A stretch of 62,884 nucleotides of DNA, filler included, from Acidimicrobiia bacterium (lineage in GTDB: Bacteria > Actinomycetota > Acidimicrobiia > Spongiisociales > JAHEDJ01), in NCBI GenBank assembly GCA_029210695.1. It is 3 parts of 3 records of this genome, joined end to end, with 100 filler letters (N's around TTAATTAATTAA, not from the genome) between each part and the next. Parts side by side here need not be neighbours in the genome. Positions count along the whole stretch, not along the records: positions 1 to 24,618 come from JARGFH010000052.1; 2 more parts are not named here. One strand, given 5' to 3'. The notes beneath the pieces are model-generated. The model did no database searches. It saw only the letters and a program-made list of their open reading frames with translations, and had not been told where the DNA came from. Position numbers and translations under genes: made by a program. Positions 1,033 through 23,989 of the stretch are shown here, piece after piece. Each line of letters starts with the position of its first letter. The first letter of the stretch is position 1.

Positions 1033-1378
1033 GAGCTAAGGGTTCTTGACGAACCGATCCGACGACTCACCAGAGAGATCACCCCATGACCGCCGCCCTA
1101 CCTGTTTCACAGATCCCATGTCCGGTGTGTTCGGGGAAGTGCGCACCAGACACGGACACGGCTGGGAGCCGCCCGACCAAAGGAGGAACCCGTGTGAGCT
1201 CCCAGCCGTGGCACACCCGTACACGCAGGTGCCTGGCCTACGCGGGCGACCAGGTCCTCGCATCTTCACCGCCGGCGCCTACCGCATCAGCTGAGGGGGG
1301 TCTTATGACCAGCAACGTCTACGAGTCAGAACCGCAGCCGGGGAGCAGGGCCCGAGCAATGAGTAGCGGCGGCCCCGC

Positions 1379-1915
1379 ATGCAGCTGAGCGCCTGGGCCG
1401 AAGCCCACGCACGGCCTCTACTGAGCCCGCTGGGACGACGCTGGCGTCATTCGCAGTCGGTAGCCGGCACCGCACGGGACCTGGCGAGATCGCTGACTCC
1501 GGAGGACGCAGATGTACTGGTGGCTGCGGCGTACCTTCACGACGTCGGCTACGCCCCGAAGCTCGCAATCTCTGGGTTCCACCCCCTCGACGGCGGCCGC
1601 TATCTTCGCGCTCTTGGCCACGGCCGGCTGGCGGGTTTGGTGGCTTATCACACTGGAGCGCAGCATGAGGCCAAGCTGCACGGCCTCCAGCAAGAACTCG
1701 CCCGCTTCGACGATGAACAGAGCCTCGTGGCAGCGGCCCTGACGTACTGCGACCTGACGAACGGGCCAGACGGGGAGCGGCTGACACCGGAGCAGCGAAT
1801 CATCGACGTCGAGGCCCGCTACGGCTCCGGCAGCCCGGTTACCACCGGGCTGCGGGCCGCGTGGCCACAGCTGCTCGACGCCGTTTGCCGGGTAGAAGAG
1901 CTCCGGCGCCCATGA
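1379..1915 (+). CDS. HD-domain metal-dependent phosphohydrolase
   Basis: RWRHSQSVA...AAAYLHDVGY...GFHPLDG...LVAYH...YCD motifs. Confidence 0.85.
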   Translation: MQLSAWAEAHARPLLSPLGRRWRHSQSVAGTARDLARSLTPEDADVLVAAAYLHDVGYAPKLAISGFHPLDGGRYLRALGHGRLAGLVAYHTGAQHEAKLHGLQQELARFDDEQSLVAAALTYCDLTNGPDGERLTPEQRIIDVEARYGSGSPVTTGLRAAWPQLLDAVCRVEELRRP

Positions 1916-2093
1916 CGACCAATTCCTCCAATCACCTGATGCCAAGGATCGCCGACAATCTGTCACGCCTGGGCGGTATTGTCAGTTGCACTCCGAACAT
2001 GTAGAGCGTTGAGTAGGAGCACAGGATGACCGCTACCCCCGACCAGCGAAGGCTGCTGAGCCTCTGCGCCATTCGCATCGACAGCACCAGGAG

Positions 2094-3272
2094 TCAGGTT
2101 TTGGTCCAGGAGAGATCGTCCAGCGCGGCCGGTACGCCCAACCCCGACACTCGAAGGGTGCGGGCGAAGCCCTTCGCTAGCCTCGCAGCCGTCGCCTTAG
2201 CTCCTGGCTCCTCGCCGGCGATCCTTGAAGCGAGCGACGCCTTGAACCCTGCAACATCGTCTGTGTAGTCGATGCACTGGACCGGGTACTGCGCGTTCTC
2301 GAGACCGCGAGCCAGTGCTCTGTTCACAGGCAGGTCGCCGAAGCCGTACCCGGCGATTACGAGCTTGTCAGCACTCCGCAGCGCGTCCTCGAACCGGTCG
2401 TAAGCCCACCGGAAGGGATCGAGTTCGACTGCTCGCGCCTTCTGGTCAGCAAGGACTACTACCGGTTCAAGTGCCGTCTCACCACGGCCGTAACGCACCC
2501 AGAAGTCCAACTCTCGCATGCGTTCGATGTGATCAACCTTCCAGATCGAGCCGTCATTGCGCCGCAGCCACTGGAGAGAGCCGTGGAGGTGGTAGACGAG
2601 GAGGTTGGCGGGCTTGTACTCATCGTCATCCCGGAGCGGGTAGGCGGTCGCAGGACCGTCCGGGACGATGTCGACGGTCTCCTGTCCGAAGCCCTGCGCC
2701 ATGTCGCCGAGGACGATCCCCCTCTTCCATGACAAGCGAATGCGTTTCGACTTCTGATCGCGAACTTCAATCGCAGCTCCATCGATCAGAGCGTCGTAGT
2801 TCAGCGTGAAAATGCGTGTGGTACCGGTCACGCCGGCGGTCTCGGCCAACCATCCCACGAGGCGCCTGAGTGGGTCCCTCGCCGTTTTGCCCTGACCAGT
2901 CGATAGGTCTGCGATGACATCGAGCGCTGCTCCCAATGTCCTCTGTCTTAGCTCGCGTCCGAACCGTTCCGCGGTGAGGAACGCCGAGGCGATATCACTT
3001 CCGGCGTCGAGGAGGGCGGCAAGCTAGCTCAGTGCGCCGAGTCCCCGGTCCAGCCTCTCGATCGGCCCGAACAACTCTTCGAAGACTGCTACCCGCGCTG
3101 GAAGGTCTTTGTTGGATGATTCTGCCAGCGTGGTGAGAGCACGTTGCACCTCTGCAACGCTCGAGTCAGACTCCGCGAAGCGGGCCAGGATCAGCTTGGT
3201 GAGAGGTTCCATCGCAAGGTCGGGGTTGTACGACATGGAGCAACCGTTCCCGACAAGGGCCACGACGTTCAT
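2094..3272 (-). pseudogene. SIR2-like (SIR2_2) NADase, interrupted by one in-frame TAG at 3024-3026
   Basis: N-terminal VALVGNGCS, then IFTLNYD, HLHGSL, LVIAGYGFGD; ORFs 3024-3272 and 2094-2936 are in the same frame and the 29 intervening codons are open. Confidence 0.8.
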
Positions 3273-3383
3273 CTCTCACCCCTCGGAGTAAGTCCCTCCG
3301 GAACCGGCCTTGGGCCATCAATCCCGCAGATCATCCTCTGCACGCCCGACAACTCCAGCTGATTCCTCACCACACGAGGGCTG

Positions 3384-4475
3384 CTACCGGTCGTCGTCAA
3401 AGCGGTACCTGACGATGAGGTGAGCCCACTGACTGTGAGGGATGAGCTTGTCGTGTTGCATCCGTCCGACGACTATTCCTGGTGCCACCCCAATGGCCTC
3501 CGCGAACTCCTCAACAGCCGCCTCCGTTGTGAGTCCAGACAGGTGCGAGGCGAACCGCGAGGGGATAAGCACGCGTCCAGCGAATGAGTCAGCCGCTCCC
3601 TCCAGGTCTTCGTCGATGCCGCTTCCTTTGGCATCGACGAACGTCTCCTTCTTGCTGTGGCGAAGGAGGTGGTAGAGCTCGTGGAAGAGGGTGAACCAGA
3701 AGATGTCGTTCCTACGATGACGGAGGCTCAGAGCAATCATTGCCTTCTCGGGCGACAGCCAGCGAGTCGCCCCGTTGACTCGGCATCTGGGCAGCTCCTT
3801 CACGATCACGAGTGCGATCCCGACCGAGGCACAGAGTGTCCTCAGTGGCTCGATCCAGTCGGTCCCCGGCGACCGGCTTAGGGCCCGCATCTGGTCAAGC
3901 GCATCGCGAACGGCGGCAGCATCGTACGAGGCCGTCTTGACACGACCAGCTTCAATCTCGGCCAACCGGAGCCAACTCGCCAACGCTCCGGCGTCGGCTT
4001 CAAAGGCAGGCGAACGTCGATACAGAGCAGGTCGAAGCCAAACCTCCTCAAGGGCATCCGGGTCGGCCACGGAGAAGAAACTGAGGAGTTCCCGGAGGGT
4101 GTCGACCTTGGGCTTCCCGCGTTGGATACACCCTCTCTGCTCTAGATCCTTGATCGGGAACTGATCCACAAGATGGACCCGCCCCCGTAGGGCCTGGGTC
4201 TCGACATGTCTGTGTTTGGCGGTCTGATAGTTGGAATCGAGCTGAGTCCAGTATCGGGCAGGGATCGACGTTACCCGCTCGAACGCGAGCGCAACCACCG
4301 GCGAGATCCCGACCTTGCCCTTGATGACATGGGTTATGTGTTTCGGCGTGAGCCCCGCGCGCCTCGCAAACTCGACCTGCGTCATGTCCTCCCGGGTGAT
4401 CCACTCCCAGAGCGTCTCGCCCGGAGGTACCAACTCCGCCGGCTCATAGGCTCGCTCATATCGGTCGGCCATCAT
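3384..4475 (-). CDS. higA: HigA-type XRE HTH antitoxin/regulator fused to ImmA/IrrE metallopeptidase
   Basis: PPGETL...MTQVEFARRAG...ALAFERV HTH; C-terminal FWFTLFHELYH (HExxH) and E..AD.FA. Confidence 0.88.
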   Translation of the reverse strand: MMADRYERAYEPAELVPPGETLWEWITREDMTQVEFARRAGLTPKHITHVIKGKVGISPVVALAFERVTSIPARYWTQLDSNYQTAKHRHVETQALRGRVHLVDQFPIKDLEQRGCIQRGKPKVDTLRELLSFFSVADPDALEEVWLRPALYRRSPAFEADAGALASWLRLAEIEAGRVKTASYDAAAVRDALDQMRALSRSPGTDWIEPLRTLCASVGIALVIVKELPRCRVNGATRWLSPEKAMIALSLRHRRNDIFWFTLFHELYHLLRHSKKETFVDAKGSGIDEDLEGAADSFAGRVLIPSRFASHLSGLTTEAAVEEFAEAIGVAPGIVVGRMQHDKLIPHSQWAHLIVRYRFDDDR

Positions 4476-4802: not shown

Positions 4803-4898
4803 GGAATCGTGAACCATGTAGGTTCACAGTAGCGAGCAACATCTCGCTACGGCGTGTTATGCTTGTTGGAATCGTGAACCGAACCGGTTCACTAGAAT
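4803..4898. promoter_or_regulatory. Divergent control region: two GGAATC-GTGAACC-N5-GGTTCAC operators, a GTAGCGAG-N6-CTCGCTAC palindrome and a TAGAAT -10-like hexamer
   Basis: Palindromes at 4809-4827 and 4874-4892; third palindrome 4829-4850; TAGAAT at 4893-4898; AAGGAG RBS before ATG 4916. Confidence 0.75.
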
Positions 4899-4915
4899 AT
4901 AGACAAGGAGAGAAG

Positions 4916-5185
4916 ATGCCCACGCCTGACAATACGATCCACCTGATCGTGGTGACCACTGCCGACGACGTCGATGACGAGTTCAACGTCAACCAGCCCC
5001 TGCAGGTGCTGTTCAACAAGGCTCTGCACGAGGTCGGCGGCGAGCCCAACCGCGACCAGTTCGCCCTAGAGTACAACGACATCGTCCTGTCCGACCTGAC
5101 CCGTAAGATCGGTGACGCAGCGCAGGAGTATGGATGGGTTGATGGCACCACCCTCGAACTCGTCCCCGCACCTGTGGTCGTGTAG
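4916..5185 (+). CDS. Ubiquitin-like (beta-grasp) protein, BilA-like, 89 aa
   Basis: Size, beta-grasp-like pattern (IHLIVV...FNVNQPLQVLFNKAL...L...KIGD...G..DGTTLELV), RBS, first gene of an E2-JAB-E1 operon. Confidence 0.75.
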   Translation: MPTPDNTIHLIVVTTADDVDDEFNVNQPLQVLFNKALHEVGGEPNRDQFALEYNDIVLSDLTRKIGDAAQEYGWVDGTTLELVPAPVVV

Positions 5186-5188
5186 GAG

Positions 5189-5605
5189 ATGGCGTGGCGA
5201 GACGACGCGCGAGCGGAGGTCGACGACCTCAAGCCGCACTTCGTCGAGAAACACGACTGGGCACCTCGACTCGTCGAGTCCGATGACGCCGAGGCCCTCG
5301 ACCTGTTCGTCACACTCCAATCGCGGAAGCACCCAGACAATGTCTTTGTCCTGCGCCTCCGCTACAAGCCCGACTGGCAGACGGCAGGACGCCGCGAAGC
5401 ATTCGTCGACCCCGACGATCCCGAGCGCGAGGGTATCGAGTACTGGCCGACCGATGTGTCGGGTTTGAAGCCCCAGAACAACCCGCCCTGCATCTGTCTC
5501 CGGGGGACATGGGGTTACCACTCCGTGCTTCATACCGATCACCTGATGGGCGACACGACCCTGCTCAACCTCCTCGTTGAGTTGCAGACAGTGCTCGATC
5601 GATGA
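5189..5605 (+). CDS. Prokaryotic E2-like conjugating enzyme, BilB-like
   Basis: FVDP...WP...PPCICLRGTWGYH with candidate catalytic Cys; operon context. Confidence 0.7.
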   Translation: MAWRDDARAEVDDLKPHFVEKHDWAPRLVESDDAEALDLFVTLQSRKHPDNVFVLRLRYKPDWQTAGRREAFVDPDDPEREGIEYWPTDVSGLKPQNNPPCICLRGTWGYHSVLHTDHLMGDTTLLNLLVELQTVLDR

Positions 5606-6207
5606 CCTTCCGTTCCCACCCGTATCCGCCCCCCGGCCATCAGGTTCGGCTCCCCACACCGATCTGGACAGCCGCTCTCGACGAAGTACGCAGGTACTCC
5701 CACCTCGGTGGCACCAGGGATCATCCAGGCTCGGAAGGCCTCGTTTACCTCGCCGGTGTCCCTGCCGCAGCCGGATTAGTCGTAACAGCCGTCCTTCGTC
5801 TCCAACACGAGCCACAAGGTGACCGGGTCGCCCCCACCCGCGAGGAGGTCCGCTGGCTGATGTCGACTCTCCGTGACCGAGACGAAAAGCTCGTTGCCCA
5901 GTTCCACACCCACCGCAACGGGGCCTTTCACTCGCCCGGGGACGACCAGATGGCGACGAGCTTCCATGACGGCTTCCTGTCGATCGTCGCCCCCAAATTC
6001 GCCGTGGGTATCCACCGCCTCGACCAGTGCGAGGTCCACGAATACCGTAAGGGGTATTTCTACGCGATGACCACCGCCGAAGTAGAAAGCCGGATCACTG
6101 TCCACGACATCGTCGTCGACCGACTACCCGAGATGCTGCAGAAGGAGCCCGACAGGTGGCACCGATTCGTACAGAGACTGAATTCGATCGCACTCAGGCA
6201 GCGCTGA
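5602..6207 (+). CDS. JAB/MPN metalloprotease (deubiquitinase-like), BilC-like
   Basis: E(GLVYLAG)...QFHTHRNGAFHSPGDD = JAMM E-HxH-x7-S-x2-D. Confidence 0.88.
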   Translation: MTFRSHPYPPPGHQVRLPTPIWTAALDEVRRYSHLGGTRDHPGSEGLVYLAGVPAAAGLVVTAVLRLQHEPQGDRVAPTREEVRWLMSTLRDRDEKLVAQFHTHRNGAFHSPGDDQMATSFHDGFLSIVAPKFAVGIHRLDQCEVHEYRKGYFYAMTTAEVESRITVHDIVVDRLPEMLQKEPDRWHRFVQRLNSIALRQR

Positions 6208-7646
6208 GCCCGCAGGGTCTGACGCTTCCACTACCACGCGGCGATATAGGCATCACTGTCGCCGACGGTGTGGAGGCGACGCCGACCGGCCAGCGACTCC
6301 TCGCCCTTCTCGTCAACGTGCTCGCCCGCATGAAGGGCGTGGTCGACACAGTCCACATCAACACAACCGCCGATCCGTTCGTTTTGCCTGGCACCCCGCT
6401 CAGCCCCGGCCATCTGAACGACGGTCTGGCCACCTTTGTCAGATCGCTCAACTGGATTGGCAGCCGACACGACGCGGAGTTGAGCTTCGAACCACCAGAC
6501 GACGCTGTGGTCCAGATCGGCATCGGCACCAATCCCGGCTCGGCCGACCTCGTCGTCGCCTGCGACGCATGGCGAGCCCTGCTAGGGGCAGCTGGCGACC
6601 AAGCGAGTTGGGAGACTGCGAACCCGATCGGCGCGGCCCTCGCTGCGGTCGTCACCGCCGCCGAGACATTCAAGGCAATCATCGCCGGCAACGGCGGGAG
6701 GAATACGACACCAGCACCCCCCGACTTCATCTACTCCGCCTTCAACTACGGGGTCGACGACAGCGCCGAGATCGGGCCCGACGTGTACAAGTTGGAGCTC
6801 CAGGACGTTGCCATCGCGGGTTGCGGCGCTGGTGGGTCCGGCACAGCCTTCATCCTCGGCATGCACCCCAGACTCTCCGGCACGATCGATCTCATCGAGC
6901 CCGGAATCCACAAGGTATCGAACATCAACCGCTACCTGCCAGCACTCGCTGGCGACGTCCACACCCCACGCCACAAGCTTTCCTCGATCGCTGATCACCT
7001 GGCCCGCACAGCACCCGCGTTGGACCTCGCCCTCCATCCGCGGCCCTGGGAGCAACTAGACCGGCATCCATGGTCAACAGTAGTCTCCGCCGTCGACACC
7101 GTCGAAGCCAGATGGCAAATCCAACAGCGCACACGCAGCGACGCCGTCATCATCGACCTCGCAGTTAATGACCTCCTCTACTCCGTTCTCCGCGTCGTTC
7201 CAGGTGGCCGCTGCCTGTTCTGCAAACACCCGTTCGACCCCGACCTGGCCGTCAATCAACGCGCACTCCGGTGGGGTGTGCCTCTCGTGACGATCAAGGA
7301 GTGGAGTTCCGCCAACAGACCGGTCGACGAAGCGATGATCCGCTCACTTGCTCACACCCAGAACCGGCCCCCGGAGGACTTCGATGATCTCCTCGGGATT
7401 CTCTTCACCAACACTCCGGCGCTGCTCGAGTGTGGATCGACGTCACTCCGGGCGGACGTCCCGAGCCAAGCCCCCATCCTTCCACTCGCCACGACCGCCG
7501 TTGCCATAGTCGGCGCCGCAGAGGTCATCAAGCACGTCATTGGGCTCCCACCCCTCGACAATTGGCTCGCCCATGACCTCCGGCGAAACCCAACTGGTCC
7601 GTGGTCCACCTACCGCGCGCCGATCCAGGACTGCCCACACCACTGA
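6156..7646 (+). CDS. E1-like ThiF-family activating enzyme, BilD-like
   Basis: IAGCGAGGSG loop, SNINRY, SAVDT..AR, CLFC Zn motif, candidate catalytic Cys in LECG, C-terminal CPHH; N-terminal half resembles an inactive adenylation domain. Confidence 0.85.
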   Translation: MAPIRTETEFDRTQAALSPQGLTLPLPRGDIGITVADGVEATPTGQRLLALLVNVLARMKGVVDTVHINTTADPFVLPGTPLSPGHLNDGLATFVRSLNWIGSRHDAELSFEPPDDAVVQIGIGTNPGSADLVVACDAWRALLGAAGDQASWETANPIGAALAAVVTAAETFKAIIAGNGGRNTTPAPPDFIYSAFNYGVDDSAEIGPDVYKLELQDVAIAGCGAGGSGTAFILGMHPRLSGTIDLIEPGIHKVSNINRYLPALAGDVHTPRHKLSSIADHLARTAPALDLALHPRPWEQLDRHPWSTVVSAVDTVEARWQIQQRTRSDAVIIDLAVNDLLYSVLRVVPGGRCLFCKHPFDPDLAVNQRALRWGVPLVTIKEWSSANRPVDEAMIRSLAHTQNRPPEDFDDLLGILFTNTPALLECGSTSLRADVPSQAPILPLATTAVAIVGAAEVIKHVIGLPPLDNWLAHDLRRNPTGPWSTYRAPIQDCPHH

Positions 7647-7825
7647 CGGCCGCAGCGGTGTCGTGCAGCAAACGCTTCGAGCACGTCTTGGAGCCTACTA
7701 TCAACGCTGCAACCGGTCCCTCCGGAACCGTCCGCAACCGATCACTCCGGCCGGGACACCTACTATCGCAGCGGGACTGTCCGATGAACGATGGCTCAAG
7801 GCGGATCAGCGGCAGCAGGCCGTCA

Positions 7826-7860
7826 GCGTGGGGTTCCAACCGAAACCTCCTGATCCGTAG
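7826..7860 (-). other. Degenerate 3' fragment of tRNA-Arg(ACG), probable relic att core
   Basis: Reverse complement CTACGGATCAGGAGGTTTCGGTTGGAACCCC resembles the anticodon loop to T-arm of tRNA-Arg(ACG); no 5' half. Confidence 0.5.
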
Positions 7861-7966
7861 ATGGCCAAGCGGCGTCCGTGAGCGTCCACATCCGTCCATA
7901 CATGGTTCAGCAGCGGGCCTCCGTTTCCACCAGTATCCACACACGGCCGCCGCGGTCCACCCCGAA

Positions 7967-8210
7967 TGGCTCCCAAGTTGGCTCCCAGCGGAGGGGGGCT
8001 GACAAGTGTTGTGCAGCAGAGATGCTGGCCTCCACGGTGGCCCACACATGGCGCGGAACGTCTGGTTGGGGGCGGCGGCGCATCGCCGGTTATGCGCCTT
8101 GCCAGCTTGGTTCCTAGTGTCGGTACTCCAAAGGGGAGCAGCATGGGCGGCACCCGGTTACGAGACCCGCACCCGTGGCGGCGCGTGTCGTACGCGAAGT
8201 CGTACGCGAC
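7967..8210. repeat. Short 12-bp-period tandem repeats resembling integrase arm-type sites
   Basis: TGGCTCCCA x2 at 7967-7987; GTCGTACGCGA x2 at 8187-8210. Confidence 0.55.
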
Positions 8211-8220
8211 AGAGCGGTCG

Positions 8221-9984
8221 CTATCGGTCTCGCGGCGGGCGCCGCAGCATCTCGAGCAACACGGCAAGAAACGCCGCGGTCTGCTCCGGAGAGGCCTCGT
8301 TCGCGACCCGGCGGATGGCGTAGCCGATGGACGCGTTGTTGTCTTGCTCGCTCCGCACCCACTCGATAACCCGCTCCAGATCAAGGGGACGGTTGCGCTG
8401 GTCGGGCCCGGACGCAGCTCGCTCCTGAGTACTGCCGCGCCCGCGGTCCGGGCGGTCCTCTCGCCAACCGCTGCGTTCGGACTGGACGGTGTCATGCGCG
8501 GCGAGCATCTCCAGTACCTCCCTGCGATGCGGTCGACGCTTGTCAGTGTCGCCGCCCATCTGCTCCCGGTCTTGGTCGACCGGAAGGTTCTCGCGGCGCT
8601 TGATCAGGATCGTTTGTCCGAACTCCAGCTCCGCCCACTGCCACTGGAACGGGCCTTGCCGCGCAGGTATCGGCTCGCCGAGGGTGCGCCGGACTCGCCC
8701 GAGGCCCGCGACCTGGAGCCCGTCGTCGGCGCTCAGTAGTGCGTCCGCTTGCGTCTTGGGCGCGGTCCAGGTCAGAAGATCAGGGTAGCGATGCCCGATG
8801 GTGCCCCCGCCGCCTGCGAGATCGGCCATGCGTCCAGCCTCGGAGGCAATGAGAGCGCTGTCCATGACAGGCACTGGCGGTTCGTCGGCAGCGGTAGCAC
8901 CGAGAAGGGCGCCAGCCATCGTCGCGATAGTGTCGGTGTCTGAGCCGATGGTGTTCGCGGCGGTGGCGAGCGACTCGGCGGGTCGTTCGTCGCACCAGGT
9001 GAGAGCTGCCGCCGCGACGACGGTGATGGTGCCGCTACCTCGGCGGTCCGGATCGAGGAGATTCAGAGCATCAATCACGCTGCCGTACCGCTCAGTCGGT
9101 GGGCTACTCGTGACAGCATGTTCGGCTGTCGAGATGGCCTCCCGGATCTCGTTCCGCGCAGCTTGCCATGCATCGCCAAACGGACGTCGCGCCTCCCGTT
9201 CCCAGCCGGTGAGCCACAGCTCACCGAGCTGCGGATCGTCGCGCAGCATCGACGGCACCGTGCCCGCATCATCGACAAGCTTGCTGAGGATCGCCGGGCT
9301 CGGGATGGTGCCGGTCTCCATCGACTGGGCGAGAGCGAGGGCGTGGATAGTCGCTCCCACGAGCGCAGTCGGGTGGGCGTGCGTGCACACCGAGTTGCGG
9401 AGCACGTCAAGCAGGTAGGTATTCGGCTCGTTGAGATTCGGCGCGGCCCAGACATGGGGTTGGATCCGCATGGCCGCTCCGTTGCCTCCGGAGTCGAGCC
9501 AGCCCCTGTAGGTGTTTGAGAACCACGCAGTCGTGGTCTTGGCGAGGTTCGTGGCGGCAGCCTTGGTCGAGAGTCCGCCCCCGAGCGCGTAGGCCAGCCA
9601 CACAGGTAACTCGACCTTGGCGAAGGCCTCGACATCGAACCCCGTCGGACCGATAGCGCGGGCGACCGCGATGCGAAGCTGCGTGTCATCTGAGTAGCAC
9701 CCCATGGGGAGCGTTGCGTTGACCCCGCCACGCCCGCCGACTCTGCGCTGCCACTCCAGCGGCATGGTGAGCTCGCGGCCCCCGGTGCGGCGGCGTAGCC
9801 CCTTGGCGTCAGTTAGCTCGCTGATGAACCCGAGCGCGTCGCCGTATGCGGCCCATAGCGCCGACAGGCGGATTCGGCCTACGCGCAGCGCGCGATCGGT
9901 GCCGTCTCCCGCTGTCTGCTGCCGCGGCATCGCGGTCTCAGTGCCGTTGTAGGGAACTTCGTCGAACAGACTGCGATCGCTCAA
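8221..9984 (-). CDS. ADP-ribosylglycohydrolase (ARH/DraG family) with long C-terminal extension
   Basis: AYGDALG, YSDDTQL, GNGAAMR, THAHP, GSDTDTIATMAGALLGA; start overlaps the darT stop. Confidence 0.92.
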   Translation of the reverse strand: MSDRSLFDEVPYNGTETAMPRQQTAGDGTDRALRVGRIRLSALWAAYGDALGFISELTDAKGLRRRTGGRELTMPLEWQRRVGGRGGVNATLPMGCYSDDTQLRIAVARAIGPTGFDVEAFAKVELPVWLAYALGGGLSTKAAATNLAKTTTAWFSNTYRGWLDSGGNGAAMRIQPHVWAAPNLNEPNTYLLDVLRNSVCTHAHPTALVGATIHALALAQSMETGTIPSPAILSKLVDDAGTVPSMLRDDPQLGELWLTGWEREARRPFGDAWQAARNEIREAISTAEHAVTSSPPTERYGSVIDALNLLDPDRRGSGTITVVAAAALTWCDERPAESLATAANTIGSDTDTIATMAGALLGATAADEPPVPVMDSALIASEAGRMADLAGGGGTIGHRYPDLLTWTAPKTQADALLSADDGLQVAGLGRVRRTLGEPIPARQGPFQWQWAELEFGQTILIKRRENLPVDQDREQMGGDTDKRRPHRREVLEMLAAHDTVQSERSGWREDRPDRGRGSTQERAASGPDQRNRPLDLERVIEWVRSEQDNNASIGYAIRRVANEASPEQTAAFLAVLLEMLRRPPRDR

Positions 9985-10673
9985 TCGAAGACCTCTCGCG
10001 CGTGGCGGACGGGAACATCATGGTCGAGAGCGCCCAGTGCGCCGTAGACGTCGTCAAGTGCCTCTTCGGCCTGGACGTCGATCCGTTGGAGGTACCGTAG
10101 ATCGACTTCGCCCGGGTACAGAACCTCGGCCTGGCGGTCTGTCGTGAAGTGGTCAGGGAGCCTGGCACGGGTGTGGACCGAGGAGTACCTTCCGATCACT
10201 GGGTCGTCGAATAGCTGATCGAACCCTCCGATGCCCTCCGCCCGCTTGCAGGTCGGATAGATGTTGTTGGTCGTCGTGAATACCACACCCGGGTGGCTCA
10301 GGATGTCCGGCGTGAACGACAACGCGACCCACGACACACCGTCGGCTATGTGCCACCTCTCGGACGTGTCGAACATCCAGTCGTTGATCCTCGATATCGA
10401 CATGTTCACGTAGTCGAGCCAGGCGGCATCGCGGCTCCGATCAAGGGCATTAGGGCGGTACACGTGCTCAAGGTATTGCTCCTGGGGCAGTCGTCGCCTG
10501 CTCTTCAGGGCTTTGCTCGCGAGGATGCCGACGGCGCCGTGGATGGTGGTGAAGTGGACAACGTCGCTGATACCGCGGTTGATCGCGGCCGTCAGGACGT
10601 CTGGGCTGGACGAGAGGAGCGCCACTTCATCGCTGGTGCGGGGCCGGGCAGCGGTGGATCGGTGTGTCGGCAT
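9981..10673 (-). CDS. darT: DarT-family (DUF4433) DNA ADP-ribosyltransferase, DarT1-like motifs
   Basis: VVHFTT...GILAS..L.SR, VNMSISRINDWMF, W...PDIL, FTTTNN, TTDRQAEVL with catalytic Glu. Confidence 0.82.
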   Translation of the reverse strand: MPTHRSTAARPRTSDEVALLSSSPDVLTAAINRGISDVVHFTTIHGAVGILASKALKSRRRLPQEQYLEHVYRPNALDRSRDAAWLDYVNMSISRINDWMFDTSERWHIADGVSWVALSFTPDILSHPGVVFTTTNNIYPTCKRAEGIGGFDQLFDDPVIGRYSSVHTRARLPDHFTTDRQAEVLYPGEVDLRYLQRIDVQAEEALDDVYGALGALDHDVPVRHAREVFD

Positions 10674-10682
10674 TGCCTACCT

Positions 10683-12089
10683 CTAGACCGTAACGGCGTC
10701 GTAGGTGGCAGGGTCGAGCAAGCCTATGAGCGTGGACTCCTCGCCTGGCTTGTAGCCGACCATGACCGAGGTACGCGCACGACCGACCCCCATGGCGAGC
10801 AGCCGTCGGAGGCGGTCGAGGGTGGCGTCCCCTTCTCCTTCGCCATGCGGGGTGACCTGCTGGTTGAGGCCAGGGAGTAGGACGTGATCGAACTCGAGCC
10901 CCTTGGCGGAGTGGACCGTCGACAGGCCCACCTGCTCTGGTCCACTAGGCCAGACGCTCTGGCGGGTGAGCTCACAGTAGGGGATCCGGTGGCGCTGCAG
11001 CACGGCGCGGGCATAGTCGAACCACCTGCCACCCCGCGGTTGCAGGATGGCGACCGACTCCTTCTCAAGATCAGCGTACGTCTGGAGTTCGGCCAGCATG
11101 TACTCGAGCTGGTTGCTGTACTTCCCTATCACGATCTTGGGGCGTCTACCTGTCTCGCGGCAGGCGGTGAAATCGGGAAGTGATCCGTCGTCCTCGAGTG
11201 GCAGGCCGGCCACCAGAGGTACTGCGAAGGCCGCGATCTCGGCAGTGTTCCGGTGGTTCTCCTCCAGCCTGTAGATCATGTTCGGCCGAAGCGCGATGCC
11301 CACCTCGGCCCACGTGAAGAAGCGGGGATAGATCCGTTGCATGGCGTCCAGCACGAACGTCGTCGAGTGATCCTTGGCCAGATGGGCGAGCACGGCCCGG
11401 ACTTGGTTGGCGGAGAAGTCTTGAGCCTCATCGACGATGACGACGTCATACTCCTCGGACTCGGCGTCGGCGGCTTCGAGGGCGAGGTCGTTCCAGTCAC
11501 GGAGGCCGGCGGCGCGCTTTGCGTCTTGGTAGGGCAGGATGACGTCGGCGAGTAGGCGCTGCCGGAGGGCGGCGTCCACCCGGGGGGAGTTGCCCCGGCC
11601 AGTCCTCTCCTTGCTGAGGTACTCGTTGAGCGTGTCGGGGGAAAACCGCGAGAGGGCGTACTCCACCTCGTCCACGAAGAAGTCGAGTTGATCGGCTTGA
11701 ATCAAAGGAAGGAGGCTCGCCCGGAGGTGTGATGCCACCTGGTCGCGATCCAGGATGTCGACGGTTCCCACGAGGCCCCGGGCCCACTTGCTAAAGGTGC
11801 TCACCTCGAGATCGAGGCGCCGATCTGCGGCAACCTGCTGACGAGCGAGTTCCATGATGTAGCCCTCGAGCGTTCGGTTGTAGGTCAAGACGAGGACCCG
11901 GACAGGGCCCCGCAAACCCAACCGATCCTGCCGGGCGAGCCGACTCTTGGTGAGCTGCTTCAAACGGAGCAACGCGGTCGTCGTCTTCCCACTCCCGGCG
12001 GCTCCTCTGATGAGCCGAAAGCCAGGACGGCCATCGGTGAGGATGACCAGCTGATCTGGGGAAGGGCGGACCGGCGAGAGGATCCGCAT
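10683..12089 (-). CDS. Superfamily 1 (UvrD-like) helicase
   Basis: GAAGSGKTT, VLTYN, IVDEAQDF, QRIY, LEENHRNT, STVHSAKGLEFD, GRAR; ATG 12089 with GGAG RBS. Confidence 0.88.
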   Translation of the reverse strand: MRILSPVRPSPDQLVILTDGRPGFRLIRGAAGSGKTTTALLRLKQLTKSRLARQDRLGLRGPVRVLVLTYNRTLEGYIMELARQQVAADRRLDLEVSTFSKWARGLVGTVDILDRDQVASHLRASLLPLIQADQLDFFVDEVEYALSRFSPDTLNEYLSKERTGRGNSPRVDAALRQRLLADVILPYQDAKRAAGLRDWNDLALEAADAESEEYDVVIVDEAQDFSANQVRAVLAHLAKDHSTTFVLDAMQRIYPRFFTWAEVGIALRPNMIYRLEENHRNTAEIAAFAVPLVAGLPLEDDGSLPDFTACRETGRRPKIVIGKYSNQLEYMLAELQTYADLEKESVAILQPRGGRWFDYARAVLQRHRIPYCELTRQSVWPSGPEQVGLSTVHSAKGLEFDHVLLPGLNQQVTPHGEGEGDATLDRLRRLLAMGVGRARTSVMVGYKPGEESTLIGLLDPATYDAVTV

Positions 12090-12277
12090 GGGCACTCCTA
12101 TGGTCGGAGCCCGCTGCCCGGGCCCACATGGTCGCAACGATAGCATCAGCATGACCGTCCCTGTTGGCAGAACGACGAACGGGCGGCCCAGCACGAATAC
12201 GGAGCGCGAACACCTCCGCCCACATGGTGTCGACCCGATAGGGCGGTGATCGCCGACCGCGGCCTGGCGGGGAGTGC

Positions 12278-13110
12278 TTAGGAGTCAGCGCCGCTGCCCG
12301 TCGACCCGCCTTCCGCCTGCCAAGCGAGGAGGGATGCGACGGCGGTGAGAACGAGCACTGCGTCGCGCCTGGTCCAACTGATGGCGATCGTGTGTTGGTC
12401 GGCGTGTAGGGCGGCGCTGGAGAGCTGGAATAGCGCATCCGCCACCGTATAGATGCGGTCTAGTTTGGTGCGCAGCTGAGCCTTACCGGCTGCAAGCGAC
12501 TTACCGTCCGGCGATCGCCATAGCTGTTCGATCACTCTTCTCGCCGATGAGATGGAGTCTTCGTAGCGGCCCTCATTCAGAGCGCGGCGTGCCTTTCTCA
12601 GCTCGTCGGTCACTTGCCGGGTCCGGCGCCTCGGCGTCGCCGAGCGGGATGACGAGCGAGAACGCGTCTGCGAACCGAGCCTGATCGAGGACGGCGGCCC
12701 AGTGCAGCGCCGGGACTGTGAGGCGAGTCTGGGTTGTCATGCTCGTGAGATTCCGGTCCCCGGAGACGGCGTGGATGGCTGGGTCGATGATCACCGTCAG
12801 ATCACGACCGCCGCGCTGGCGCTCCAGTAGTTCGAGCTGTTCGCGAGTTAGGTCGAGGGGCCAGCTCAATCGCAGAGCTGAAGTTCGTCTGGCTGAGAAT
12901 GGTCGCGGAGGTCTGATGAGCGAGCCCGAGTTTCTGGAGTCCGGATCTGCTCAGCTCGACCATCACCATTGCGCCGCCGATCAGCTGTACATCGTCCTTC
13001 GGTGGCCGCAAACATAGGACCCGACAACGGAAACGGAGACGGTGACCACCGACGAAGGGGAACCCGTCCACGCTGAGGCCGTCGCCTGCAAGCTGGATCG
13101 TGCTAGCCAC
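12278..13110 (-). pseudogene. Hypothetical gene with HEPN-like C-terminus, apparently broken by two frameshifts
   Basis: Three overlapping minus-strand frames join into one plausible protein (MASTIQL... / ...WPLDLTREQLELLERQRGGRDL... / ...DELRKARRALNEGRYEDSISSARRVIE...SSAALH); start overlaps the M48 stop. Confidence 0.5.
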
Positions 13111-13813
13111 TTGCGACGTCTCCAAGCCACAGGGTCCGTCCTGCCGCCGCCAGTCGATCTCTCGACTCGGCGTAAACCGGCTGCACTCGGGCCACTGCGT
13201 CCCAGAAGCGGTTGCTGTGGTTCGGGTAGTGGGCGTGGGTGAGCTCATGGACAAGGACGTAGTCGACGAGAGTGGGTTGCAGTTGCAGGGTGGCCCAGTG
13301 GATGTTGAGGCGGCCATCGCGATACGAGCCCCAGCGGTACCCGAGGTCTCGCATCACGATGGCGAATTCGGGGACGTTGCAGCGTGAGGCCCACAGCCTG
13401 ACCCGCTTGCGGAGCCAGGAGGTTCCGGTGGCTCGGTACCAGGCGATGAGCGCGGCGGCACCGTCGGGCTCGTCACGGCGTAGGCACAGGCGTCCACCGG
13501 AGAGCCTCACCGCCATGTCCTGGTCGTCGACCAGCAGGAGCCGGTAGTTGCGGCCCAGGTAGCGGAAGCCCTCCCCGTTGACGAGCTGCTTGGGTGGCTG
13601 CACCGGCAGGAAATCAGCCTTCTCGATCAGCTTGCGGTGGATCCAGTCTTGTTTGCGGTCGATAAAGTCCCGCACCGGGTCGTCTGGGGTCCCTGCCGGA
13701 ACCGCTACCAGGAGTGAGCCGTCTCGGTCGATGGTGATCTCCATCGTCGACCGGGCGGGCCTTTCGCTCACGGCCACCTCGAGGCCAGCAACTTCGAGCA
13801 CGCGGTCGGTCAT
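13103..13813 (-). CDS. M48/YgjP (DUF45) metallopeptidase associated with type I R-M
   Basis: GE.F.YLGR.Y.L, RWGS, YVLVHELTH, H...FW; ATGA overlap with hsdR. Confidence 0.9.
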   Translation of the reverse strand: MTDRVLEVAGLEVAVSERPARSTMEITIDRDGSLLVAVPAGTPDDPVRDFIDRKQDWIHRKLIEKADFLPVQPPKQLVNGEGFRYLGRNYRLLLVDDQDMAVRLSGGRLCLRRDEPDGAAALIAWYRATGTSWLRKRVRLWASRCNVPEFAIVMRDLGYRWGSYRDGRLNIHWATLQLQPTLVDYVLVHELTHAHYPNHSNRFWDAVARVQPVYAESRDRLAAAGRTLWLGDVASG

Positions 13814-16800
13814 GTCGTCACCAAGAGTTGATGGTTGGCTTTGGACAGCTCGATCAGCCGGTCGGCGACCCGCTTGCAATGGTCGAGCGGGTACAGGCGG
13901 CTCTCGTCGAGACGCTGGACCACCTGCTTCCGCAGCTCGTCCTGGGCGTTGGCGTTCCCCCAAAAGCCGACAGTCCTCACCCGTCGGCGAATCATGTCGA
14001 CAAGTCCGGTCGTCACTTCGATCATCTGGTCACGCGCGACAGCCGCCTCGCCAAGTTCATCCTCGATCACGCCGAGGAATCGGAGGTCGATCTCGTCGAG
14101 ACCCGTTGCATCCGTTTCCCGGTCGGCTGTCGCATCATCAATCAGCTCGCCGATCGCGAGAGCGAGCTGATCCCATTTGCCCTCCAGTGCGTCGAGGACC
14201 TCGTCCAGCCGTTCCGACAGTTTCTTGTACCGGGCCGGGTCCTCGTAGTACTTCTCCAAGATGTGGTGGCGCAGGGCGTGTTCCATCTCCGACGCCTTCG
14301 CTCGCTCCGACGGCTGCCCTGCGACGTGCGTCTTGAAGTCGACGTCGGTGATCCGGATCGGGGGAATGGCCTGGGCGAGGTCGAGCACGGTGATATGTTC
14401 GTCGATCAGCTGTCGCACCTTCTCCCGATATAGCGACGGGTCGAACCCGCCGTTCCCTTGGTCCCGGTATCGCAGGCGCGTGTACAGCTGGATCTTCCCG
14501 AACAGCTTGGCGTCGGCAACGAACGGACGAGCTTCGGGTCGAGGCAACACGATGTCCAGGCTGACCAGGAACCGTTTGACATCGATGTCGAAGCGGGCTC
14601 GCAGCTCCGGATTGCCGAACAGGTCCACACAGAGTTCGATCACTCCCGGGTCATCGGCAAGGTCTATGCCGTGACCGGCCAAGAACTGGACGACACGCTG
14701 GTGGCGATCCGACAGCCGTCCGGCCTCTTCGGCGATGCTCCGCAGCGAACCGGCAGCGAGGTCGTCGAGCTTCCCGTCAGCGTCGGCGTAGGCTGCCAGG
14801 GCCTCGGTAAGGTGGTTGACAACCCCGTAGTAGTCGACCACCAACCCGTAGTCCTTGCCGTCGGCGGTTCGGTTGACCCGGGCGACCGCCTGCAGCAGCT
14901 CTGCCTGTTGGATGAGCCGATCCAGAAAGAGCACCTGGGCGACCGGTGCGTCGAAACCGGTGAGGAGCATCGATTTCACGATGAGCATCGCCACCGGTGA
15001 CGTCTTGTCGGCGTCGGGACCGAGCGGCTTCTTGAAGGCTTCGATCCGACTGTCCTGTTCGTCCTTGTCGGTCCAGGTAGCCCAGTCGGCCGAGTCATTG
15101 TGGGCACCGGATATCACGGGGACGAACTCGAGGATCCGGATCAGGTCGATGTGCGGTAGGGCACGTACCAGGAACTGCTGACGTCGGGGAAGGTCATCGA
15201 TCTCATCGCCGGACATCCCGGCGAGCGCCGGGTCGAGGTTCTCGAGGTGAGAGACCAGTAGGTCTCGTGCCGCGTTGAACGCGTCGCGGTAACGGATGCA
15301 GGCTCGCCGACTAGAGGCGACGACCATCCCCTTGAGCCCCTGCGGCAGCACTGTCGCTACATAGTGCTCGAGCATGTCGGCGGCCTTGGCGGAAATCATC
15401 TCGGGCGCCTCCAAGACCTCCGCCACCCTGGCGTACTTGGCTTGCAGCGCATCCCGCTGCTCGGCGGTAAGACCGGCGAACCAGCGGAAGAACAGCTCGT
15501 CCATGTCGGAGGCGCCCTTGACCGCCCCGTCGGCGGTTCGGCCCTCATAGAGGATCGGGACCGTCGAACCGTCTGCCTCGGATTCGGCGAGGGTGTAGGT
15601 ATCGAGGAACGGGCCGAAGATGTCGTGTGTCTTCTTGCGGGCGCCCATGATGATCGGCGTTCCCGTGAACCCAACCCGGGCGGCGTTAGGGAGCGCAGCC
15701 ATCAGGTTGGCGTGTAACCCAGATGCATGCGACCGGTGTGCCTCATCCACCATCACCAGAATCGCGTCGTCGTCGTTCAGGACACCAAAGGTTCCGTCGG
15801 CCGTTTCGTCCTCCTCCAGGCCAGGCTCGACTGCGATCTCGTCCCGATACTTCTGGATCATCGCCATCACCAGACCAGGCCCGGACTGGGCCAACAGGGT
15901 CTTCAGATGCCTGGTCCTACGAGCGACAGCGACGGTCTCGCCTGACAGCTCGGCAGTGTCCCGCAACTGCTTCTGCAGAGCGGTGCGGTCGCTCACCACC
16001 ACCACCTTGAAACGGCGCAGCTCCGGATCCGATCGCATCTTGCGGACCAGGAACACTATGGTCAGCGACTTGCCCGACCCCTGGGTGTGCCAGATCACGC
16101 CGCCTCGCTGGTCGACCTCGCCGTCCTCAGCCCGAGTCTTGCCGGTCTTCAACCGATCGATCGCCCGATGAACACTCCGGAACTGCTGGTACCGCGTCAC
16201 CGCCTTAACGGTCCGCTGCCCGACCGGCATGAACAGCGTGAAGTGCCTGACGATGTCCAACAGGCTCTCCGGCCGAAGCATCCCAGCGATGAGCGACTCC
16301 TGCCCCGACAGGTCCTCGACCCGCTTGGCGACACCGGACGACACCGGTACGGCCTCCGAGAGAGGGTAAGGATCCTTCCACTCGAGGAAATGCTCCGGAC
16401 CCGAGGTGAAGGTCCCAACTCGCGCCGCTTCGAAGGTGGTGCCAACCACAAACTGGTTCGCCCAGAACAGCGACTCGTTGCCCTCGTCCGCATCAACCTC
16501 GCCACGCCGGTTCGAGTAGCGGCGAAGCTGGGTGATCGCCCGGGCAATCGCATCCTCCGGCCCCGGTGCCTTGCACTCCACCACCACCAGCGGGATTCCG
16601 TTAACGAACAACACCAGGTCTGGACAGATGAACTGCTTGGACTGCCCACCCGGCTCGTCCACCCGGAACTGGTTGATGACCAGGAAGTCGTTGTTCGCCC
16701 AGTTCTCCCAGTCGATGAACCGCACCATCTGATCACGACCCTGACCCCACCACTCCATCCCCGGCACCGTTGTCCCAGTAAGCAGCAGGTCGGTGGCCTT

Positions 16801-17079
16801 CCGATTCGCGTCGATGAGCTTCAGCCCACCGGCGCCAGCCTTCTGTAGTGAAGACACCGCCTGCGAAACCCGACGTTCGTCCAGCCACGGCTCGCCCGTG
16901 GCGTCGAGATTGATCCACTTCAATGCCGCTCGAAGCCGACCCTCGAGGACGACATCACGCCACGACTCTCGTTCGGTCAATGCCGGTTCCCATGTATCGC
17001 CCGAGAGGTGGCCCCAGCCCAAAGCCTGAAGCTGTTGGACCGCCGGCCACTCGACCAGCTCGAACTCAAGGCCACTCAT
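13810..17079 (-). CDS. hsdR: Type I restriction endonuclease subunit R
   Basis: PDLVLFVNGIPLVVVECK nuclease; WHTQGSGKS, DEAHRS, GFTGTP, LLTGFDAP, QAVARVNR. Confidence 0.96.
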   Translation of the reverse strand: MSGLEFELVEWPAVQQLQALGWGHLSGDTWEPALTERESWRDVVLEGRLRAALKWINLDATGEPWLDERRVSQAVSSLQKAGAGGLKLIDANRKATDLLLTGTTVPGMEWWGQGRDQMVRFIDWENWANNDFLVINQFRVDEPGGQSKQFICPDLVLFVNGIPLVVVECKAPGPEDAIARAITQLRRYSNRRGEVDADEGNESLFWANQFVVGTTFEAARVGTFTSGPEHFLEWKDPYPLSEAVPVSSGVAKRVEDLSGQESLIAGMLRPESLLDIVRHFTLFMPVGQRTVKAVTRYQQFRSVHRAIDRLKTGKTRAEDGEVDQRGGVIWHTQGSGKSLTIVFLVRKMRSDPELRRFKVVVVSDRTALQKQLRDTAELSGETVAVARRTRHLKTLLAQSGPGLVMAMIQKYRDEIAVEPGLEEDETADGTFGVLNDDDAILVMVDEAHRSHASGLHANLMAALPNAARVGFTGTPIIMGARKKTHDIFGPFLDTYTLAESEADGSTVPILYEGRTADGAVKGASDMDELFFRWFAGLTAEQRDALQAKYARVAEVLEAPEMISAKAADMLEHYVATVLPQGLKGMVVASSRRACIRYRDAFNAARDLLVSHLENLDPALAGMSGDEIDDLPRRQQFLVRALPHIDLIRILEFVPVISGAHNDSADWATWTDKDEQDSRIEAFKKPLGPDADKTSPVAMLIVKSMLLTGFDAPVAQVLFLDRLIQQAELLQAVARVNRTADGKDYGLVVDYYGVVNHLTEALAAYADADGKLDDLAAGSLRSIAEEAGRLSDRHQRVVQFLAGHGIDLADDPGVIELCVDLFGNPELRARFDIDVKRFLVSLDIVLPRPEARPFVADAKLFGKIQLYTRLRYRDQGNGGFDPSLYREKVRQLIDEHITVLDLAQAIPPIRITDVDFKTHVAGQPSERAKASEMEHALRHHILEKYYEDPARYKKLSERLDEVLDALEGKWDQLALAIGELIDDATADRETDATGLDEIDLRFLGVIEDELGEAAVARDQMIEVTTGLVDMIRRRVRTVGFWGNANAQDELRKQVVQRLDESRLYPLDHCKRVADRLIELSKANHQLLVTT

Positions 17080-18272
17080 GACGCCACCGTACGAACGCGG
17101 CCTGAGAGAAGATCGGATGCAAGACCAGACCTGATCGCCCTCAGTGTCCGCTTGAAGTCCTGATTCCGCCGGATGTTTGCCCGCGCGGAACGAGCGAACG
17201 AGACGATTCTCCTCTGTTCGTCGATGGGCGGGACCAGAACGGTTGTGTCGGCGACGATCGCAGAGTTGATGTTCGACTGAGTACCCGTTTGCCCGCGACG
17301 AATAAAGTCATCGCGGTAGTGCTCTAGGAGGAGCACGAGGAAATCGTTGTCGACTGAATCGTCATGCTGAACATGGACGAACCCGTCGTGAATGCAGGCC
17401 TCCGTCCCCACCACAATCGCTACCCCGATCGTCGCAGCAATGCTCATGATGACGTCGCCAGGATTGACCCACCTGCTCCTCGCTGCCCCGGCATTAGACA
17501 GCTTGTCTCGGGTTCCGACGAGCAGGTCACCTGAAGACGTCACGTCGGAGATCCGGACCCACGCACGACCAGACTCCGAGAACCAGGCAGGATTGTCTAT
17601 CGGCCTTGGACTGGCGCCGCGCTGCACTCTTGCGAAAGACCCCACCCTGCATTCCCGCCATTCTCCTCGCGTGCAGGAGCCGACCCCGTTCATCAAGTCC
17701 CGTCGGAATCCTTGCTCAAGCTGCGTCAGCTTCGCGATGAGGCGTTCGGTGGCCTGGATTGCCTCGTCGATCGTGTCGAGGACCTCCGCAATGCGTTTCT
17801 GTTCCTCGAGCGGCGGGGCGCGGAAGGTGATCTCGGCGAACTGGCGGTACCGAATCGAACCCCTTCGATCAACGGAGGCTTGCTCGAGAACCGCATACGC
17901 CGCCAGAGCCTCCGGGCTCTTCAGAACGCGGAGCAGATAACGGGGATCAATACTGTCGCTGGCGGAAAAGACTGTGTACATAGGGCTGACACAGCCTTCG
18001 CCGAGTCCCTGGTTCAAGCCAATCGATCCCTCCGCGAGATGGTTAGTGGCGTATGCAAACCAACCCGGCTCAACCACCCTGTACTGCGCGAGGTTTTCGC
18101 TGTAGATCTGTCGGCCCTTGAAATACTCGTCAGATGGCACAAGGCCGTAGTGCTTGGTCGACGAGAAGACGAGCGGGTCCACCTTGGACCCGACTCGCTT
18201 CGACTCTAGGACCGTTGCCTCTCCAATGGTGCGAGTCCTCCACCCCGAAGGAAGGGCCAGTCCTTCACTCAT
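17076..18272 (-). CDS. hsdS: Type I R-M specificity subunit S
   Basis: LPSGW start; two TRDs with [10 protein letters not shown] and [10 protein letters not shown] conserved regions; DLLSGRVR end. Confidence 0.93.
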
Positions 18273-20691: not shown

Positions 20692-20734
20692 GGATCGATT
20701 CTCGCATCCGATCGCTCGGCGAGCGACCCGGGCA

Positions 20735-23700: not shown

Positions 23701-23857
23701 CCGCCGACACGATGCCCTTCAGTCCCTGTTCGACGGCGCCACTGCCGTGCCAGCGACCGGTCGCAGTCCCACCCCGCAGGTAGTAGTCCTCACCAGGCGA
23801 AATCTCCCCCAGTTTCTGGAGGTAGTAGTCCTTGCGCGCCTTGGCGATACTCAACAT
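20735..23857 (-). CDS. MobF (TrwC) relaxase fused to RecD-like helicase
   Basis: MLSIAK..DYY...[63 protein letters not shown]. Confidence 0.93.
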
Positions 23858-23989
23858 GCGGCACCCCGGGAACGGTCGACCAGTACCCCCAAGGCAACTT
23901 GTCAGTGGTTTACCTTCGGGTGGGAGCGCCGGTTGGTGCTCTTGGAGACTGGTGATGGCCACGGTGACGGCTAGCAACTTATTGCCCCC

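Follow-up and report, generated by a model that had tools for sequence, protein, structure and literature searches.

A helicase-DarT-ARH operon in an Acidimicrobiia genome is a distant orthologue of the DarHTG system

Introduction

What does an operon do that places a DarT-type ADP-ribosyltransferase (ART) between a helicase and an ADP-ribosylglycohydrolase (ARH), and does it represent a new way of pairing DarT with an antitoxin? The question is raised by three genes in the metagenome-assembled genome (MAG) of an Acidimicrobiia bacterium (GCA_029210695.1; 3.9 Mb in 181 contigs). The window, that is the whole stretch of 62,884 nucleotides (nt) that was analysed, consists of three contigs of this MAG joined by runs of N (24619-24718 and 49121-49220), and only positions 1-24618, representing contig C129, are contiguous with the operon. 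A first-pass annotation had read the trio as an undescribed third DarT-antitoxin pairing. This part of its claim falls, because the arrangement has already been catalogued as DarHTG (PMC13069673, as far as the available parts of that paper go); the window operon is a distant orthologue of this described system, not a system of an undescribed kind. Overall, we put at roughly 80% the probability that the three genes form an intact DarHTG-type toxin-antitoxin phage-defence operon within a defence island that a conjugative element carries.

Results

Gene-for-gene homology with DarHTG

The three adjacent, co-oriented open reading frames (ORFs) lie on the minus strand in the order helicase, DarT, ARH (Table 1). 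Their coordinates, the 9-nt gap and the TTGA overlap, as given in the first-pass annotation, were all confirmed from the sequence. The helicase ORF extends to position 12194; we kept its start at 12089, where the annotation had placed it, because homologues begin at this ATG, including the E. coli one, which aligns from residue 1. The TTGA overlap has the form of translational coupling, and the tight junctions suggest that the three proteins would be co-produced. Among related loci, 4-nt overlaps were common at both junctions: helicase and DarT were mostly joined by such overlaps or by gaps of a few nt, and the overlap between DarT and ARH recurred in many loci (for example L014, L016, L020, L021 and L025).

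A literature search for DarT-helicase-ARH trios returned a single description, that of DarHTG in E. coli (Liu et al., Nucleic Acids Res, April 2026; PMC13069673), a system renamed from the candidate Liu-DS3 and composed of DarH, DarT and DarG3. According to the available parts of that paper, DarH is a UvrD-like helicase without a 2B domain, described as 'acquired' by DarTG, DarG3 resembles eukaryotic and archaeal ADP-ribosylglycohydrolases, and the system protects E. coli from phages T4, T7, T5 and SSL_2009a. The same parts report that defence was lost in DarT active-site and DarH ATP-site mutants and that no mutant of DarG3 could be obtained. An earlier paper, de Souza and Aravind 2012, may already have noted the DarT-ARH linkage, judging from others who cite it for DarT neighbourhoods with 'different hydrolases'.

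We compared the window operon with a trio that agrees with the published account of DarHTG and is shared by E. coli and Salmonella; it is annotated as '3'-5' exonuclease | DarT | ADP-ribosylglycohydrolase', is chromosomal in 21 of 5426 complete E. coli genomes and shows at least 99% DNA identity to a copy on a Salmonella plasmid. Identity to the window proteins reached 44% for the helicase over its full length (E 8e-140), 36% for DarT (E 4e-47) and 41% for the ARH protein over residues 31-464 (E 5e-114). In addition, the E. coli/Salmonella DarT fell inside the same ARH-linked clade as the window DarT (support 100/99). Because of this gene-for-gene homology and the shared DarT clade, we filed the window operon as a member of DarHTG, and we use the names DarH, DarT and DarG3 for its products.

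The DarT toxin is of DarT1 type

DarT scored far above the cut-off of its Pfam family PF14487 (E 2e-22; 80.3 bits versus 22.5) and was also detected by PADLOC; its closest named homologue, with 71% identity, comes from an Acidimicrobiales MAG. The motifs from which the first-pass annotation had assigned it to the DarT1 branch, namely H40-F41-T42, S92-I-S-R-I-N97 followed by M100-F101, and T178-D-R-Q-A-E183-V-L, are present and invariant in 23 DarT homologues, and the assignment itself held in both structure searches and phylogeny. A single-sequence search of the PDB with the window DarT found E. coli C7 DarT1 (8baq; E 1e-3), and a profile of the 23 sequences matched the same structure at E 2.5e-9 as the sole DarT; neither search returned a DarT2 structure at E<=1.

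For the phylogeny, comparison DarTs were taken from 401 Pseudomonadota genomes (23 with a match), from the genomes behind loci L001-L004 and from the window's own genome. Typing their neighbours with Pfam yielded 19 macrodomain-linked and seven NADAR-linked DarTs as well as one without a recognisable partner. The IQ-TREE tree comprised 61 rows (65 before the removal of exact duplicates) and left out truncated or contig-cut DarTs, the 139-residue L068, the second partial copy in L067, L082 and the weak fragments L079 and L080. The ARH-linked DarTs formed a single clade of 34 rows (support 100/99), and ARH- and NADAR-linked DarTs together were split from the macrodomain-linked ones at 99/94.

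Complementarily, we mapped residues of E. coli C7 DarT1 onto the window DarT, relying on the printed 8baq alignments and, for the roles of the residues, on section 10 of PMC11543638. All 13 mapped catalytic or guanine-holding residues were identical in the window protein and invariant in the 23 sequences (DarT1 residue first, window residue second: H17/H40, the NAD-binding His; F18/F41; T19/T42; R35/R59; N48/N75; R52/R79; D54/D82; S63/S92; M71/M100; F72/F101; N104/N136, base-holding; Q150/Q181; and E152/E183, catalytic). Two of these, S63 and N104, occupy the positions of Tyr71 and His119 in DarT2 (PMC11543638). Descent and active-site make-up thus support a DarT1-type enzyme, which makes the N2 amino group of guanine in single-stranded DNA (ssDNA) the most likely, predicted target. 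The DarT1 subfamily is further marked by a NADAR (DarG1) partner; the partner found here is an ARH, and because of this the window system was not filed as DarTG1.

The trio is conserved and widely scattered

Outside the window we collected 42 loci of the ARH type, from four genomes, 34 metagenome contigs, one genome of the window's phylum and three plasmids. Conservation of the trio, which the first-pass annotation had proposed as a check, was borne out: the helicase lay upstream of DarT in 42/42 loci and the ARH gene downstream in 39/42, the other three contigs ending inside DarT or no more than 174 nt past it. Chance is excluded as an explanation of the arrangement because of the Pfam E-values and the synteny kept in these 42 other loci. 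A scan with one genome per species contributed four loci, in Dehalococcoidia, Arenicellales, Azotimanducaceae and Pseudomonadales MAGs, all of which had helicase and ARH flanking DarT. Scanning metagenomes with the DarT alignment gave 36 loci, 34 of them of the ARH type, with the helicase in 34/34 and the ARH in 31/34. The genome of the window's own phylum (L049) carried the trio as well, as did the three plasmids examined among 12 plasmid records matching ARH: Salmonella pIndS104-CTX, Streptomyces tsukubensis pST1 and Cereibacter sphaeroides p.D, the helicase being present in the last even though the plasmid table omits it.

The distribution of the trio is sporadic. The window DarT was found in none of 40 close relatives and in one of 400 further genomes drawn from the phylum, and it had no match in 50,697 phage records. 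Taken as a family, the system reaches from Actinomycetota-like MAGs and Chloroflexota to Alpha- and Gammaproteobacteria and Streptomyces, and onto plasmids and conjugative elements; to this wide spread the window adds evidence and a distant, intact orthologue.

Several copies had settings or defects of their own. Insertion sequence (IS) elements surround the trio both on the chromosome of E. coli AR_0128 (L008, 10081-13983) and on the Salmonella plasmid, with a gene for a P-loop NTPase of 1300 residues next to it; on pST1 (L006, 1-1694) it adjoins TnsA-like and DDE genes of Tn7-type transposition. These settings suggest that the trio spreads on several kinds of mobile element. The Pseudomonadales copy (L004, 3749-8225) is decayed: its DarT matches residues 73-229 only, the HFT NAD-binding motif is lost, and an ORF of 297 residues without any family lies between helicase and DarT. 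The L004 ARH looks intact and may be an antitoxin retained after loss of the toxin. One metagenomic ARH gene (L034, 2588-4207) carries a single in-frame stop at codon 420 and was excluded from the alignment.

DarG3 combines an ARH domain with an additional C-terminal region

The third protein matched the Pfam family ADP_ribosyl_GH (PF03747; E 8e-31) and had no match in PADLOC. NCBIfam models matched the three proteins of the operon only far below threshold, and for DarG3 the sole match was DraG (23.7 bits versus a cut-off of 337). In a search of 1.84 billion representatives, the DarG3 family comprised 467 clusters at 50% identity (E<=1e-30). The metal-site motifs S98-D99-D100 and D349-T350-D351-T352, previously noted as intact, are indeed present and invariant in 21 ARH homologues; further invariants of the ARH domain are D49, E56, G166-G167-N168-G169 (GGNGAAMR loop) and T201-H202.

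An AlphaFold (AF2) model built on the 21 sequences reached a predicted local distance difference test score (pLDDT) of 84.5 and a predicted template modelling score (pTM) of 0.78, and divided the protein into four parts (Table 1). Invariant positions outside the catalytic domain were W450, Q457 and L460 in the beta domain and G554 in the helical bundle. Foldseek placed the protein closest to MJ1187 (1t5j; E 4e-9), followed by the immunity protein of a Listeria ART-ARH pair (8za7; E 4e-8), ARH3 (E 7e-8) and DraG (E 5e-7). The ARH fold, with an archaeal protein and ARH3 among the best matches, fits what has been described for DarG3 of E. coli.

The alignment with the E. coli protein extends to residue 464, i.e., through the beta domain. 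No Pfam family matched the C-terminal ~200 residues at E<=1. Residues 395-587 folded alone gave a pLDDT of 75.5, and a Foldseek search of this model against the PDB returned nothing at E<=0.001, the best matches (E ~0.3) being mostly ribosomal proteins. In a wide VIA-align search of the C-terminus, the three-helix bundle alone gave matches, to helical proteins of a generic kind (Z<=6.3); the beta domain was barely probed. Profile-profile comparison (hhalign) with macrodomain DarG2 proteins, including their DarT-binding domain, detected no relation (probability ~1%, E 0.057). Prediction of a complex between DarG3 (28-587) and DarT gave an ipSAE of 0.00 in two runs without controls, which is uninformative either way on binding.

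DarH is a short UvrD-like helicase with intact ATP-binding motifs

DarH matched the Pfam families UvrD-helicase (E 9e-11, residues 25-254) and UvrD_C (E 4e-12, residues 385-446), the latter being covered solely at model positions 285-347 of 350; PADLOC reported NERD+UvrD and GajB-type UvrD helicase matches. Like the described DarH, the protein is UvrD-like, and its ATP-binding motifs are intact. In 21 helicases, two NADAR-linked ones included, the Walker A residues G29-A31-G32-G34-K35 and the motif II residues D220-E221-Q223-D224 (DExQD) are invariant, as are K396-G397-L398-F400-D401 and R437-A438. With 468 residues, DarH falls ~200-270 residues short of the UvrD, Rep and PcrA chains (647-745 residues). 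This length, together with the partial UvrD_C match, is consistent with a missing 2B domain.

A second helicase-DarT1 operon ends in NADAR

The same genome holds another DarT trio on contig C179 (L011), comprising helicase, DarT1 and NADAR in an order matching that of the window trio (Table 1). Its helicase and DarH are full-length homologues (28% identity, E 8e-33), and its DarT shares 26% identity with the window DarT. A metagenome contig (L048) likewise encodes helicase, DarT1 and NADAR. Overall, an upstream helicase was present in two of the six NADAR-linked loci with a readable upstream side and in none of the 19 macrodomain-linked loci examined. In the loci at hand, a DarH-type helicase thus appears to accompany the DarT1 side, always with ARH and sometimes with NADAR. 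Our literature search found no mention of a UvrD helicase with DarTG1, and helicase-DarT1-NADAR trios bear on the origin of the helicase, as either an acquisition by DarTG or a component of an older core.

The operon lies among defence genes on a conjugative element

Upstream of the trio, on the same strand, lies a complete type I restriction-modification (R-M) system (Table 1). On its other side the operon adjoins a four-gene set encoding a ubiquitin-like DUF2604 protein, a 138-residue ORF product without assignment, a BilC-like JAB protein (PADLOC E 5e-10) and a ThiF-type E1, which is probably a Bil-like defence system. Judging by its gene content, the contig holds a defence island, bracketed by a coupling protein and TrwC, and belongs to a conjugative element or plasmid. 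Two ORFs upstream of darH (12278-12613 and 12573-12869) were considered as parts of the system and rejected, having neither a Pfam or PADLOC match nor a relative in any fetched locus.

Table 1. Coordinates of the operon, the predicted parts of DarG3, the surrounding genes and the second DarT trio. Positions refer to the window, except in the last three rows, where they refer to contig C179.
Feature	Position	Strand	Description
darH	10683..12089	-	468 residues; UvrD-like superfamily 1 helicase
Spacer	10674..10682	-	AGGTAGGCA; 9 nt from helicase stop TAG to DarT ATG; read from the sequence
darT	9981..10673	-	230 residues; DarT-family ART, predicted toxin; catalytic Glu E183
TTGA overlap	9981..9984	-	darT stop TGA and ARH-gene start TTG; read from the sequence
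darG3	8221..9984	-	587 residues; ADP-ribosylglycohydrolase, presumed antitoxin
DarG3 ARH catalytic domain	8815..9903	-	Residues 28-390; pLDDT mostly >90
DarG3 small five-strand all-beta domain	8593..8751	-	Residues 412-464; pLDDT 84-95; conserved
DarG3 linker	8395..8565	-	Residues 474-530; low complexity, disordered, poorly conserved; pLDDT <50; gapped alignment without conserved columns
DarG3 C-terminal three-helix bundle	8242..8379	-	Residues 536-581; helices 536-545, 550-563, 566-581; pLDDT 80-96
Type IV coupling protein fragment	85-1032	+	TraG/VirD4-like
Defence-type SIR2	2094-2936	-	PADLOC Aga_SIR2/SIR2 models
Helix-turn-helix plus M78 protein	3384-4475	-	PD-Lambda-2_B-like; PD-Lambda-2_B match E 5e-34
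Bil-like ubiquitin-like set	4859-7646	+	Four genes; adjoins operon
YgjP-like metallopeptidase	13103-13963	-	ORF as listed overlaps hsdR end
Type I R-M system	13810-20796	-	Complete; upstream of trio, same strand
HsdR	13810-17079	-	
HsdS	17076-18332	-	
HsdM	18265-20796	-	
TrwC relaxase-helicase	20735-24124	-	
C179 helicase	2076-3500	-	474 residues; UvrD-like
C179 DarT	1381-2079	-	DarT1 8baq match E 2e-17
C179 NADAR	675-1463	-	DarT1-associated NADAR PF22397, E 4e-75

Discussion

Read as DarHTG, the operon would work as follows. DarT, the toxin, would attach ADP-ribose from NAD+ to bases of ssDNA and thereby block the replication of an infecting phage. DarG3, an antitoxin by analogy with the E. 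coli work, would remove the ADP-ribose with its two-metal site, so that the uninfected cell stays alive; that it acts on DNA is what we infer. DarH would be an obligatory third part, which either exposes ssDNA to DarT or senses phage replication or recombination intermediates; most likely, it couples the action of the toxin to such intermediates.

Several observations weigh against this reading or parts of it. We found no sigma-70-like promoter or terminator in 7600-12700. The fold search leaves DarG3 undistinguished between ARH3-like and DraG-like. The substrates of characterised ARH enzymes are protein-linked or O-linked ADP-ribose. The DarT tree was rooted at its midpoint only, with four long branches flagged, and the ARH clade within it is weakly sister (89/70) to a pair of NADAR-linked DarTs, L047 and L048, the latter with a helicase at its locus. 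In DarT1, the O6 and N7 of guanine are read by K74 and Y75 (PMC11543638), which align across a gap, and uncertainly, with R106/W107 of the window DarT. The available parts of PMC13069673 report neither a modified base nor a hydrolase assay. Finally, that the E. coli/Salmonella trio is the operon tested there is what we conclude from how the paper describes it and from two of its tables: two of the 21 E. coli genomes were checked, and for both Table S1 counts zero complete DarTG systems and Table S3 lists a single DarTG-type candidate operon.

How the two DarT trios of this genome relate is a further question. One answer, which we hold tentatively and at somewhat short of even odds, is that DarG3 is the first ARH-fold eraser of ADP-ribose on a DNA base (guanine N2) and that helicase and DarT1 form an old two-gene core, for which NADAR and ARH have been swapped as erasers of the same lesion; one genome could therefore keep both versions (C129 and C179). 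Were this true, the helicase would belong to the ancestral DarT1-type system and would not be a late addition to DarTG, DarG3 would extend the ARH superfamily to de-ADP-ribosylation of DNA bases, and the two erasers, NADAR and ARH, would be interchangeable. The DarT of DarHTG, being DarT1-derived, is predicted to mark guanine.

The alternative that survives best keeps the defence system and changes the lesion: DarT would mark something other than guanine (another base, RNA or a phosphate end), and an ARH would have been recruited since NADAR cannot remove that mark. The antitoxin is unlike that of every characterised DarT1, characterised antitoxins erase the mark of their own toxin only (available parts of bioRxiv 10.1101/2024.07.11.602962; PMC11543638, section 9), a branch of 0.83 sets the ARH-linked DarTs apart as a separate clade, and K74 and Y75 are not clearly retained. 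However, N136 (DarT1 N104), D82/R79, S92 and M100/F101 are kept and invariant, and the ARH clade lies among the NADAR-linked DarTs, not between the DarT1 and DarT2 groups; we therefore regard a non-guanine target as unlikely.

Less probable still is a main role of the operon as an addiction module that stabilises the conjugative element. It does lie between the coupling-protein gene and the TrwC gene, and its relatives occur on plasmids and beside Tn7-like and IS elements; yet the E. coli homologue confers defence against four phages, according to the available parts of PMC13069673, and the neighbours here are defence genes. The two roles are, moreover, compatible. Least probable of all is an ART that modifies a protein, such as the helicase or a phage protein, with ARH reversing this as in DraT-DraG or ART-ARH effector-immunity pairs: the ARH fold matches the Listeria immunity protein, ARH3 and DraG, and DraG is the only NCBIfam model to match, far below its cut-off, but the ART exceeds the PF14487 cut-off and keeps Q181 and N136, which hold ssDNA and base in DarT1, characterised DarT enzymes modify ssDNA (PMC11543638 among sources), and a DNA helicase is the obligate partner in 42/42 loci.

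Comparison with known systems

The protein-acting ART-ARH pairs, DraT-DraG and the Listeria pair (8za7), share with the window operon an ARH-fold hydrolase encoded beside the ART whose effect it reverses. Their ARTs differ in that they are not of the DarT family and modify proteins, and DarG3 carries ~200 extra C-terminal residues.

DarTG2, the DarT2-macrodomain DarG system of Thermus aquaticus and M. tuberculosis (Jankevicius et al. 2016, PMC5179494), has a toxin of the same superfamily, PF14487, and likewise pairs a DNA ADP-ribosylating toxin with an enzymatic eraser. It differs in its separate DarT clade and in its antitoxin, a macrodomain protein with a DarT-binding C-terminal domain. In five macrodomain-linked DarT2 loci of our comparison set (L059, L060, L061, L063 and L065), the gene directly upstream of darT encodes a type I R-M specificity subunit (Methylase_S), and DarTG2 seems to form part of type I R-M operons there. 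A further locus, from Pseudomonadota (L073, 880-2064, minus strand), fuses DarT and macrodomain in a single ORF.

DarTG1, the DarT1-NADAR system of E. coli C7 and Geobacter lovleyi (Schuller et al. 2023, PMC11543638), is closer. In the tree, the window DarT groups on the side of DarT1 (99/94), and the two have the mapped active-site residues in common, including Ser for the Tyr and Asn for the His of DarT2; in contrast, the antitoxin of the window DarT is ARH-fold and not NADAR, and a helicase accompanies it in 42/42 loci, compared with 2/6 NADAR-linked loci. Gene order varies within DarTG1 itself, one Pseudomonadota DarT1 locus (L076, 438-2040) having its NADAR gene upstream of the toxin and not downstream.

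Closest of all is DarHTG of E. coli. The window copy differs from it as a distant orthologue on a conjugative element of an uncultured bacterium of high guanine-cytosine content, known from sequence alone, and in the C-terminal linker and helical bundle of its DarG3, which BLASTP could not align. Gene order, in turn, is the same, as are the sizes of the helicase (~465 residues), DarT (~220-230 residues) and the ARH-fold protein (~560-590 residues), and both DarG3 proteins share the beta domain that follows the ARH domain.

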